DNA from: an uncultured Bacteroidota bacterium
Lineage (GTDB): Bacteria > CLD3 > SB21
Direction: 5' to 3'
Assembly (NCBI GenBank): GCA_964415295.1
Contig: CAYPYN010000004.1
Location: forward strand, 268,573-332,572
Length of the DNA: 64,000 nt
Shown piece by piece: positions 27,993 through 30,772 of this stretch. Within the stretch, counting starts at the first letter, position 1. Each line of letters begins with the position of its first letter. The notes beneath the pieces are model-generated. The model worked only from the letters and a program-made list of their open reading frames with translations. It was not told where the DNA came from and made no database searches. A program made the position numbers and the translations under genes.

Positions 27993-28724
27993 CTATAAAC
28001 TCTTGATCCGGATCTTCTGCTTAAAAAGAAAATTCAGAATTTCGAAATAATTGTCTTTACCGATACGCTGATACAAAAACCGCCCGCCCGCACCTCTGCT
28101 CATGGATGGTATTTCAGGAACCTGCTCCTTCAGTCTGACGAGCTTTCGGGAAAGGCCGATCAATTGCTGCTGCCACTCCTGCTGTGAGAGCCTTTCCCTT
28201 TCGATCTCGCCTTTCTCCGATTGAATGATGCCGAGGACGCCACGCATCGGCCCTTCGCCGATCCCATCTTCGGATTTATCAAGAAAAAGAAAATGGATCG
28301 GCGACATTACGGTCAAACCTCCCCAGGCGCCGCTCAAGGTCACACAGGCCTGACCTTTCCGGATCCGTTCGCCCTGACGGCATGGCACCACCGAGAAGAC
28401 GTTATCGAGGAACCGAATGGCCAGCGAACTGAGACTGATGCGGTATGTACGATCGGGTAATTCATCCAGAACGAGGTTGCCGGGAAGATAAATGGAACGT
28501 TTATTCGGATACTCGGTCATAAGACTATTGAGGATACGGTCGAGCATATCGGATCCGTCTTCCTGAGCCCCTATATCTTCCTTTACCGTTTGAATATGGC
28601 TGCGGTTCCTCATCACATTGTCGAAGTCACAATGCTCGCAGTCAAAGGATTTGTCGCACAGTTTATAATCCACAACATGCGAGGCCATCCAAACACATGC
28701 GGCATTTTCGATATTGCTTTTCAC
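27993..28724 (-). CDS. Stand-alone protein with an N-terminal Cys cluster and a glycine-cleavage H-protein-like domain (no lipoyl-Lys)
   Basis: C-x5-C-x2-C at the N-terminus. The central region was aligned by hand to the GcvH hybrid-barrel (…DRTYRISLSS… / …TVMSPIHF…). This alignment is weaker than for the two receiver fusions. Confidence 0.45.
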   Translation of the reverse strand: MKSNIENAACVWMASHVVDYKLCDKSFDCEHCDFDNVMRNRSHIQTVKEDIGAQEDGSDMLDRILNSLMTEYPNKRSIYLPGNLVLDELPDRTYRISLSSLAIRFLDNVFSVVPCRQGERIRKGQACVTLSGAWGGLTVMSPIHFLFLDKSEDGIGEGPMRGVLGIIQSEKGEIERERLSQQEWQQQLIGLSRKLVRLKEQVPEIPSMSRGAGGRFLYQRIGKDNYFEILNFLFKQKIRIKSL

Positions 28725-28763
28725 TTCGTTCCTCTTTCGAGGTCCGTTTGATGGTACGAAATA

Positions 28764-29927
28764 TTACCTTACAAAAAACTCAGCCACCACTTTTTGCCAG
28801 TTCACATCCGACAGTTTTTCAAACTGGCCAACATAGATCTGGCTGTCTTCGACGTATTCACCGGCCGGCTTTTCCGATTTCAAAAGGTCTTTCATCAGAT
28901 TCTTTAACTTTTCTAGATCTTCCTGGAAAAAGGCCACGGCCGACTTGCCGATGTGCATACTCTTTATCTCGTGATCGAAATTATCCGTGTCAAAAGAGCA
29001 GATCCAGTTGCCCTCGTAGGGCGTCACATCCAGCGCCGATGTATTGTCCTTGACGTACTGATTGATCTGAGATATCTTGCCGCTGACCGGGGAATTGAAC
29101 GTCACACTCCGATTGCCCTGCCTGACGGTGAATAACGGCTGGCCGGCTTTGACGGTCATTCCAAGGTTCGGCAACTCAACGGATCCGACACGACCTATCA
29201 GTTTTTTGGCAAAGTCGTCGAGTCCGACCTTGGCAATGCCCTCTTGATTGATACTGACCCATGTATGATTCTTGGAAATGAACACACCGCCCGGTATCGA
29301 AAATTCGCCGCGTACAAAATCCCCTGAGGCGGGCATGTGCGTGATGTGGACCTGCGGTTTGAGTTGTTTCTGGATCCGGTCCTGGCGTTTGATCAGGGTT
29401 TTCTTTACGAAATCCAGCAATTCATCTTCGGTAAAAGGCTTCTGCACGTAATCCATCGCACCGTATTTCATCGTCTCAACGGCTGTTTCCACGGAGGCAT
29501 AACCGGTGATAATAATCACATCGATATCCGGACGCATATGTTTGACCGCTTTGGTCACCTCCACACCGTCCATGGCCGGCATCTTGAGATCCGTAAATAC
29601 AAAATCATAATGATGCTTCTGAATAAGCCCGAGTGCTTCCTGACCTGTTTCGACGGTGTCTACCGAATAGCCGTCGAGGACCAGGATTTTGCGGAAGCTC
29701 CCCAAAATGACCTCTTCGTCATCCACACACAGAATTTTGGCCTTCGGATTTTGTACTTCGGCGCGCTTGAGCGTTTTGGCTTCATGGGTAAAGTCCAGAC
29801 GGAGGCTTTCCTGCAACACGGTCTCGCGTTCTTTCTTTAGTTTTTTCTCCGTTAACTGTTTTGCGATCACGCGAATAAGGATGTCCGCGATGATGAAGAT
29901 GATGACTGCAACGATTAATAGTGCCAT
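28764..29927 (-). CDS. Membrane-anchored response-regulator receiver fused to a GcvH-like domain
   Basis: One N-terminal TM helix and a receiver domain (…CVDDEE…[11 protein letters not shown]…KPF). The C-terminal 120 aa align with E. coli GcvH (HTW/[39 protein letters not shown]). The lipoyl-Lys position is occupied by Asn. Confidence 0.7.
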   Translation of the reverse strand: [387 protein letters not shown]

Positions 29928-29980
29928 GATGTATCTCCTAGACGTTTCGTCCGGTTATGTTAGATCAATTATTTGAAACG

Positions 29981-30772
29981 TTATAATTTATCTGAACTAT
30001 AGGGTAATAATTGTCTGGTCTCGTAATCGATATCGGTCGGAATAACACGGTATATCCAGCCTTCGAAATAAGGATCTTTTTCAACAATGCTTGGGTTTTC
30101 CCTGATGCTCTTATTTACCTCAATGATCCGGCCCGATACCGGTGACAGGATCTTATGTATCCTATCATCCCCCGACCGGATCACGGCACAGCTCGTGCCC
30201 TGAGCAATCTCTTCGTCCGCGGCCAGCAATTCAATCTCTTTCACCGATTCTATGGTCTTCAGGAATAGATCGCAGACACCCACGACGGCATTGCCTTCAT
30301 TCTCCTGATATACCCAGCTGGAGTAGCCCAATCGAAGATACCGGGCCGGACATGGTACGAAAAGAAGGCCGCTATGGCGCTTAGCCTGTTTTTCCTTTAT
30401 CTCCTGGTATCGGTGAGCACGGTATAGCGAACCCAGAAGTTCATCTACCGTAAAGGGCTTCGGAATAAAATCAACAGCACCCTGATACAGGGAATTGACC
30501 GCATTCTCAACCGTCGAATAGCCGGTCATCATGATGAGCACAGCACGACTGTCCCTGTTTTTCAATTCCTCCAGGATCTGAAAACCGTCACCATCAGGCA
30601 TCATAATGTCGCAGAGTACGATCGGATACTCGTTGGCCGCGATCTTTTCAATAGCCGACTGCACATTGAGTGCCGAATCGACAACGTATTTCTCCAGTGA
30701 ACAGATCTTTATCAAGCCGTCCAGTATCACCTGTTCATCGTCTATGGCCAATATGTCTGCCGTTCGATTCAT
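29981..30772 (-). CDS. Response-regulator receiver fused to a GcvH-like domain
   Basis: Receiver domain (IDDEQ…CDIMMPDGDG…KPF), then a GcvH-like domain (…VGVCDLF…SPVSGRIIEVN…PYFEGWIYRV) with no Lys at the lipoylation position. Confidence 0.7.
   Translation of the reverse strand: MNRTADILAIDDEQVILDGLIKICSLEKYVVDSALNVQSAIEKIAANEYPIVLCDIMMPDGDGFQILEELKNRDSRAVLIMMTGYSTVENAVNSLYQGAVDFIPKPFTVDELLGSLYRAHRYQEIKEKQAKRHSGLLFVPCPARYLRLGYSSWVYQENEGNAVVGVCDLFLKTIESVKEIELLAADEEIAQGTSCAVIRSGDDRIHKILSPVSGRIIEVNKSIRENPSIVEKDPYFEGWIYRVIPTDIDYETRQLLPYSSDKL

Follow-up and report, generated by a model that had tools for sequence, protein, structure and literature searches.

Lipoate-free H-protein-like domains in two response regulators and a four-cysteine protein encoded beside an NrfD-type respiratory complex

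Three consecutive genes in a stretch of 64,000 nucleotides (nt) from an uncultured Bacteroidota bacterium (contig CAYPYN010000004.1; hereafter the window) encode proteins that carry a domain resembling the glycine-cleavage H-protein, GcvH, and that lack the lysine to which lipoate is attached in GcvH. We call them RR263 and RR387, two response regulators, and P243, which has no receiver domain. In our reading, to which we give a probability of roughly 55%, the three genes encode a single lipoate-free H-protein-like family whose members dock onto other proteins and do not carry a cofactor. The 'output' and 'protein interaction' roles are those that we infer from domain architecture and gene neighborhood; a non-lipoylated interaction output or adaptor of some kind is likely, and the assignment of one specific partner, an iron–sulfur (FeS)–NrfD complex encoded in the same gene row, is tentative. 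The closest database proteins to the window genes belong to Ignavibacteriota metagenome-assembled genomes. RR387 relatives were scanned for at one genome per species, which gave 295 matching genomes; 80 of these, from Ignavibacteriota, were fetched for locus comparison. Locus counts out of 80 refer to this set unless sediment metagenomes are named, and statements about gene order cover related loci long enough to show gene position. No database record of a protein identical to RR263 was found.

A sequence-only reading of the window had proposed three consecutive H-protein-like proteins, and the fold it gave to their C-terminal regions held in hidden Markov model searches, profile comparison and structure comparison. 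All three proteins contain the H-protein fold, since RR387 and RR263 match it in Pfam and P243 is tied to it through its relatives, a family profile match and a structural model. RR387 and RR263 score 72.2 and 72.1 bits, respectively, against the Pfam family GCV_H (PF01597; gathering score 22.2 bits), and are the only two places in the window found by tblastn with E. coli GcvH (4e-15 and 6e-13). The module retains the H-protein core motifs HxW, VG-DDFA, SP-x-G and PY-x-GW. Against the NCBIfam gcvH equivalog TIGR00527 they reach 64.5 and 55.6 bits, about half of its cut-off of 115.85 bits. P243 by itself matches nothing in Pfam or NCBIfam, and the weaker GcvH alignment first reported for it was a fair description. 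An exhaustive profile search groups its relatives into 717 clusters; 19 of 81 aligned relatives individually match GCV_H (best 1.7e-20), and the P243 family profile matches E. coli GcvH in the PDB (3a8i_E) at 8.4e-11. The AlphaFold model of P243 reached a predicted local distance difference test score (pLDDT) of 84.3 with 81 diverse relatives, compared to 39.6 with only 11 close homologs. The H-protein-like domain of P243 covers residues ∼70–177. The fold superposes on solved H-proteins.

None of the three domains has a lysine at the lipoyl position. With each family aligned to E. coli GcvH, the column of K65 (ESVKA) is occupied by Asp203 in RR263 (nt 30164-30166), Asn272 in RR387 (nt 29112-29114) and Trp134 in P243 (nt 28323-28325). 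The first inspection of the sequence had named the Asn and the Asp correctly and had given Gly/Ala for P243, a misreading due to a one-column alignment shift that the profile alignment set right. We scored homolog columns on 120 RR263 relatives, 120 RR387 relatives, 11 close P243 relatives and 149 listed representatives. The lipoyl column holds Asp (67), Glu (52) or Gly (1) in the RR263 set, Asn (99), Ser (11), Thr (6), Tyr (2) or Gly (2) in the RR387 set and Trp in 11/11 close P243 relatives; among the 149 representatives it holds Trp (66), Asp (15), Gly (14), Glu (9) and Asn (8), the rest being gaps and rarer residues. Lys is absent from this column in all 120 + 120 + 11 homologs and does not rank among the six most frequent residues of the 149 representatives, and no alignment of the window proteins or of ∼390 relatives brought back a Lys that could be lipoylated. 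Because the Lys is missing, the module cannot be a swinging-arm carrier.

The residue directly after the lipoyl column bears on whether some other side chain could take over. It is basic in nearly all members, being Arg in 117/120 and 109/120 and Lys in 3/120 and 11/120 of the RR263 and RR387 families, respectively, and mostly Lys in receiver-less transmembrane (TM) GcvH-like paralogs. In RR263 relatives two more hairpin positions are kept, an invariant His three residues further along and a near-invariant Lys four residues further along. These proteins could still be carriers, with a covalent modification on a non-canonical residue (a neighboring Arg/Lys or a Cys) and with the module shuttling a group between enzymes in the manner of GcvH or LbpA. 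LbpA is an example of a GcvH-like protein that serves a redox complex other than glycine cleavage (PMC6067878); HdrA/GltD-like oxidoreductases downstream in some Desulfobacterota loci would suit such a role. In the window, however, the residue is Arg (RR263 and RR387) or Gly (P243) and is not acylatable, the downstream oxidoreductases are not conserved, and tblastn with E. coli GcvH revealed no gcvT, gcvP or further GcvH-like sequence in the window. In addition, the Lys of LbpA is strictly conserved, which is not so in the family of receiver-fused (REC-GcvH) and four-cysteine (Cys4-GcvH) proteins. We regard a carrier role as improbable.

The module is shared well beyond the window. The P243 family aligns with the RR387 output region and its receiver-less relatives at a probability of 99.4 (hhalign; E 5.5e-22, 157 columns) in a match that spans the H-protein-like core and the C-terminal helices, and receiver-less TM-GcvH-like proteins can be aligned with the RR387 output module over its whole length. 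The helical extension covers residues 333–387 of RR387, and RR263 ends without such a tail. A 'G-x-T-M-x-D-G-G' motif is found in these helices in most relatives, and the window proteins have a degenerate form of it. In locus L037 (2677-2937, minus strand) and in 13 other loci, the gene right before the TM-GcvH-like gene encodes a TM mini-protein of ∼90 amino acids (aa) that ends '...ETMYDGG...'; the TM-x-DGG motif common to this mini-protein and the GcvH-like tails may be an independent docking peptide. Open reading frames in the 80 loci include 81 TM-REC-GcvH-like, 77 REC-GcvH-like, 19 TM-GcvH-like and 23 Cys4-motif proteins, plus three GcvH-like proteins without additions. A locus usually holds two to four paralogs, as a rule a single membrane-anchored form with at least one soluble form.

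Conservation of the module is high. RR387 is 78–88% identical in its best 120 homologs, comparable to the NrfD subunit and to the histidine kinase HKA described below, and identities across listed homologs are 60–76% for RR263 and 52–70% for P243. The H-protein-like part of RR387 is clearly functional, and by these sequence comparisons clearly under purifying selection, because its mean identity is 75% and 37/118 columns are invariant. This bears on a further explanation, that the H-protein part is a decaying, functionless remnant and the proteins are stand-alone receivers. The loss of the catalytic Lys and the drift of P243 below Pfam detection would be in accordance with decay, but the high conservation over hundreds of genomes, the family-specific invariant residues, the retention of the module where the receiver is absent and the confident P243 model (pLDDT 84) leave this explanation a negligible probability. 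As identities for the three proteins, a true H-protein, an LbpA and a relic were ruled out by the Lys column, the scores and the conservation.

The placement of two of the domains behind CheY-like receivers, proposed from the sequence, was borne out by Pfam (PF00072; Table 1). The acidic pair, phospho-acceptor Asp, Thr and Lys of a receiver, in this order D11/D12/D55/T83/K105 of RR263 and D69/D70/D113/T141/K163 of RR387, are invariant or nearly so in 120/120 homologs of each, and both receivers are intact and predicted to be phosphorylatable. The proposed membrane anchoring of one receiver also stood: RR387 begins with a hydrophobic helix (residues 2–22), after which comes a stretch rich in Lys and Arg, as would suit an N-out/C-in anchor that leaves the receiver on the cytoplasmic side, and the same topology is predicted for the anchor of its receiver-less TM paralog. 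Neither a DNA-binding nor an enzymatic domain was found in RR263 or RR387 with Pfam and NCBIfam; their matches to NtrC/sigma-54 families are confined to the receiver, without the AAA+ and HTH parts. We favor a docking module because the Lys is missing, no enzymatic or DNA-binding part is present, the module is kept with or without a receiver, and paralogs are usual in each locus.

The same retained core motifs could instead belong to a ligand or cofactor sensor, in which the cleft for the lipoyl arm is kept as a pocket for a quinone, thiol or metabolite and the domain acts as an input that tunes the receiver. The hairpin is conserved and polar or aromatic (relatives of RR263 have D/E-R-x-H-K there, and those of P243 an invariant Trp), and the cysteine motif of P243 suggests redox chemistry nearby. 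However, no ligand-binding family in Pfam or NCBIfam was matched, and the residue at the hairpin tip differs wholly among the three subfamilies (D/E, N and W), which argues against one common ligand. Receivers normally answer to kinases, one of which is encoded next to these. We consider the sensor explanation unlikely.

P243 has a cysteine cluster in place of the receiver, as the sequence-only reading had noticed; the C-x5-C-x2-C spacing given there did not stand, and the conserved motif is C10-x12-C23-x5-C29-x2-C32. It is nearly invariant in the P243 family, occurs in up to four repeats in some relatives, and is probably a metal or Fe–S redox site. The deposited P243 (231 aa, ATG at 28688) lacks the conserved C-x-W-M and, with it, the first cysteine of the motif; a start at the GTG at 28724 (243 aa), or at one nearby, is more likely.

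In the window the three genes lie within a row of nine minus-strand genes arranged head to tail with intergenic gaps of at most ∼60 bases, and all of the coordinates studied are genuine minus-strand open reading frames (Table 1). The order is FeS protein, NrfD, cytochrome, HKA, RR263, RR387, P243, a second histidine kinase (HKB) and an NtrC-type regulator. The gcvT and gcvP genes are not among these neighbors, and likewise not in the 80 related loci. The reading frame of the FeS protein extends to 36046, with the likely start at the ATG at 35950 (MSGKSRRDFLKK); its orthologs begin MSGKSRRDFLK. Across 64–66 related loci the FeS protein is 64–83% identical, and the NrfD subunit is 69–88% identical across related loci. 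The NtrC-type regulator likely starts at ∼26295.

Table 1. Features of the window (positions in nt) and of related loci
Feature	Position	Strand	Basis or remark
Periplasmic 4Fe-4S protein, Tat signal	35042-35950	-	Pfam Fer4_11 3.1e-19 and TAT_signal; first gene of conserved cassette
NrfD-family integral membrane (quinone-interacting) subunit	33798-35090	-	Pfam NrfD 1.6e-20
Multiheme c-type cytochrome, lipoprotein-like signal	32656-33801	-	Pfam Cytochrom_CIII 8e-17, Cytochrome_C7; 13 CxxCH counted
Histidine kinase HKA	30782-32647	-	Pfam HAMP, HisKA, HATPase_c, DZR
RR263: soluble receiver and lipoate-free H-protein-like domain	29981-30772	-	Pfam Response_reg, GCV_H
RR263 receiver, aa 7-114	30431-30754	-	Pfam Response_reg 6.7e-25
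RR263 H-protein-like domain, aa 152-251	30020-30319	-	Pfam GCV_H 5e-20
RR387: TM anchor, receiver, lipoate-free H-protein-like domain, helical C-terminal extension	28764-29927	-	Pfam
RR387 receiver, aa 65-174	29406-29735	-	Pfam Response_reg 3.6e-31
RR387 H-protein-like domain, aa 218-332	28932-29276	-	Pfam GCV_H 4.7e-20
P243: four-Cys motif, diverged lipoate-free H-protein-like domain, helical C-terminal extension	27993-28724	-	Profile search, model
P243 four-Cys motif	28629-28697	-	
Histidine kinase HKB, HKA paralog	26297-27934	-	Pfam HAMP, HisKA, HATPase_c
NtrC-type sigma-54-dependent response regulator (receiver, AAA+, HTH_8)	24952-26367	-	Sigma54_activat 2.6e-66, Response_reg 1.4e-32, HTH_8
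Kinase-free operon TM-GcvH-like (223 aa)/FeS/NrfD/Cys4-GcvH-like	L079 81-3465	-	Also L009, L014, L027, L073; absent from window
Histidine kinase (PAS-GAF), NtrC, peptidase M54 (archaemetzincin-like), protein with 1-4 Cys4 motifs and lipoate-free GcvH-like domain	L103 3541-8930		L085-L164

In all related loci that extend far enough, the HKA gene immediately precedes that of RR263, and we presume HKA to be the kinase of RR263 and RR387, as we presume HKB to be that of the NtrC-type regulator. The two kinases are 32% identical and share a CxxCH and a CxxxxCH motif in the periplasmic loop, at C114 and C158 in HKA and at C130 and C173 in HKB. One motif of each type is kept in this loop in 73–74 of 78 HKA/HKB-related kinases, which suggests heme-c redox sensing, and there are weak matches to the heme-containing Mcp40H-20 sensor family. 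Judged from these motifs, HKA and HKB are probably di-heme c redox sensors. HKA also has an insert of ∼130 residues (aa ∼420–548, window ∼30990-31390) between the N box and the G1 box of its ATPase domain; it contains CPDC...CPNC zinc-ribbon motifs (Pfam DZR 0.0036, DZR_2, Zn_ribbon_15), which are unusual in a histidine kinase catalytic domain.

Gene-neighborhood comparison, which had been suggested as a check, showed that the module travels with two-component genes in several lineages. The order FeS–NrfD–cytochrome–HKA–RR263–RR387 is kept in every long-enough Ignavibacteriota locus among the 80. Beyond what the window alone had indicated, the module also occurs without a receiver, tied to FeS–NrfD complexes and to histidine kinase (HK)–NtrC pairs. 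Upstream of the cassette, 23/80 loci contain a divergent, kinase-free operon encoding a TM-GcvH-like protein, a Tat-less FeS protein, a second NrfD and a Cys4-GcvH-like protein, which may represent an undescribed NrfD-type complex with two H-protein-like subunits. In two loci (L025 2869-6734 and L046 3130-6996) another set replaces the usual FeS–NrfD–13-heme set before HKA–RR263–RR387: a second TM-REC-GcvH of 388 aa, with ∼54% identity to RR387, and after it a small cytochrome, a Tat-FeS protein and NrfD. We prefer the FeS–NrfD complex as the target because of the kinase-free operon, the extra paralog in these two loci and the membrane anchor. About 33–36 loci have two conserved genes of ∼144 and 201 aa, convergent and downstream of RR387 (e.g. 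L058 11167-11601 and L044 11585-12190); they are absent from the window, and from their sequences we take them to be PCuAC-like and SCO1-like.

The contexts of the Cys4 proteins point in another direction. A search of sediment metagenomes for Cys4 relatives, made with a 14-sequence alignment, provided 80 loci (L085-L164), and in 47–49/80 of these the Cys4-GcvH-like genes follow an HK(PAS-GAF)–NtrC–peptidase M54 row, with variable downstream genes. No REC-GcvH fusion stands beside the Cys4-GcvH genes in these 80 sediment-metagenome loci. Four distant Cys4 relatives lie on contigs of 1–1.6 kb that hold no neighboring genes. Giant HdrA/GltD-like oxidoreductases are encoded downstream of the Cys4-GcvH-like gene in some sediment loci. 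P243–HKB–NtrC follows RR387 only in the closest relatives of the window (L004, L007, L045, L165 and L166). In one of them, L165, an M54 gene comes right after NtrC, so the association of Cys4-GcvH-like gene, kinase, NtrC and M54 is, together with the sediment cassettes, an old one, and the window has lost its M54 gene.

This cross-phylum association with HK–NtrC makes the kinase or the activator the main rival target. The modules would then be signaling connectors only, binding HKB or NtrC so that the HKA signal and the Cys4 signal of P243 converge on sigma-54 transcription, with the FeS–NrfD–cytochrome genes as the regulated target. In accordance with this, Cys4-GcvH-like genes are fixed companions of HK–NtrC(–M54) across phyla, and P243 directly precedes HKB–NtrC in the window. 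A connector, however, explains neither the kinase-free TM-GcvH/FeS/NrfD/Cys4-GcvH operon nor the membrane anchor of RR387, and HKB–NtrC is not near most cassettes. Such an arrangement is possible, with perhaps one chance in a few.

In the docking mechanism that we propose, HKA would read the redox state of the periplasm or the quinone pool through its hemes and would phosphorylate soluble RR263 and membrane-anchored RR387. Once phosphorylated, the H-protein-like modules would bind differently to one another, to P243 and to a target on the cytoplasmic side of the membrane. If the target is the FeS–NrfD complex, the outcome would be post-translational control, or assembly, of this electron-transfer module, and P243 would add a cysteine-based input and relay it to HKB–NtrC and hence to sigma-54-dependent transcription. 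Taken to its full extent, this would define an undescribed cross-phylum family of lipoate-free H-proteins (REC-fused, membrane-anchored and Cys4-fused) as a regulatory or accessory layer of NrfD-type quinone-interacting complexes, with RR387 controlling the complex directly by phosphorylation-dependent docking, not by transcription, and with the Cys4 proteins as a new class of Fe–S or metal redox co-sensors for HK–NtrC. We offer this extended version as speculation that is more doubtful than probable.

Several observations weigh against the proposal. A circuit that controls the FeS–NrfD operon by transcription alone would be expected to show the same neighborhood. HKB–NtrC and P243 are missing from the immediate surroundings in most of the 80 loci. 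The sigma-54 promoter consensus TGGCAC-N5-TTGC, searched with at most one mismatch, gave two matches, a number below chance, and none near the operon. No NrfD gene lies close to those of the Desulfobacterota-type Cys4 proteins, so that the partner cannot be NrfD in all lineages. Lastly, the Arg/Lys after the lipoyl column is the sole opening for a modification hypothesis; it is inapplicable to the window proteins, but some other family members may carry a covalent modification.

Response regulators are mostly understood through their output domains, and an H-protein-like output has no assigned function. The proteins described here represent a response regulator with a new, repurposed output domain, behind which stands a wider, undescribed family, and the Ignavibacteriota set is a conserved, uncharacterized signaling layer beside a membrane respiratory complex. 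If the module docks on a respiratory complex or a kinase, it would provide a new coupling of redox sensing to the control of electron transport and a clear case of a cofactor-carrier fold turned signaling adaptor. There is also a consequence for annotation: the name 'glycine cleavage system H lipoate-binding protein' is misleading for RR263- and RR387-type genes, and P243-type proteins are now named 'hypothetical' and annotated with a truncated start. The response-regulator architecture had been called unfamiliar on first inspection. Our literature search, whose scope did not extend to response-regulator censuses, found no publication linking GcvH to a receiver domain, but the REC-GcvH architecture was already visible in precomputed Pfam annotation and in the JGI name 'two-component response regulator/glycine cleavage system H lipoate-binding protein'.

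Among known systems, the LbpA proteins are GcvH-like lipoate-binding proteins of the Hdr-like sulfur-oxidation system (eLife 2018, PMC6067878), with a strictly conserved lipoylated Lys, dedicated lipoate ligases and linkage to hdr-like genes (PMC6067878). They resemble the window proteins in being GcvH-like proteins diverted from glycine cleavage to a membrane- or Fe–S-linked redox system, and they have extra conserved cysteines; unlike them, the window proteins lack the Lys and are fused to signaling domains, and neither a lipoate ligase nor hdr-like genes were found in the cassette, in Pfam searches and across related loci. Genuine GcvH has the same fold, whereas here the lipoyl-Lys, the equivalog score and the linkage to gcvT/gcvP all fail; the domains are instead joined to a receiver, a TM helix or a Cys4 motif and have a helical extension added at the C-terminus, and their genes are sited in a respiratory and two-component gene row. 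A lipoate-free H-protein-like module that binds proteins exists in eukaryotes as ABITRAM/FAM206A, which InterPro groups with GCV_H; this protein differs in being eukaryotic, stand-alone and actin-associated, and the comparison is drawn at superfamily level.

The upstream genes of the window share the three-subunit make-up (cytochrome, FeS protein and NrfD) of NrfD-family quinone-interacting complexes of the NrfBCD/NetBCD type. We know of no described NrfD complex with H-protein-like accessory proteins, or with a dedicated heme-sensor kinase and REC-GcvH regulators, and a literature search on non-lipoylated GcvH with NrfD and on NrfD clusters of Ignavibacteria returned nothing relevant. Response regulators with a repurposed, non-DNA-binding docking output, among them PhyR (sigma-like), RssB (PP2C-like) and CheY-type adaptors, come closest in behavior. 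The likeness to these is that a canonical receiver controls a domain without its ancestral chemistry, partner binding being inferred here; in contrast to PhyR and RssB, the output here is an H-protein/lipoyl-type barrel-sandwich, and one member is membrane-anchored. Finally, the weaker structural neighbors of the module include lipoyl domains bound to GHKL-type pyruvate dehydrogenase kinases, which provide a precedent for a lipoyl-type fold that docks on a kinase.

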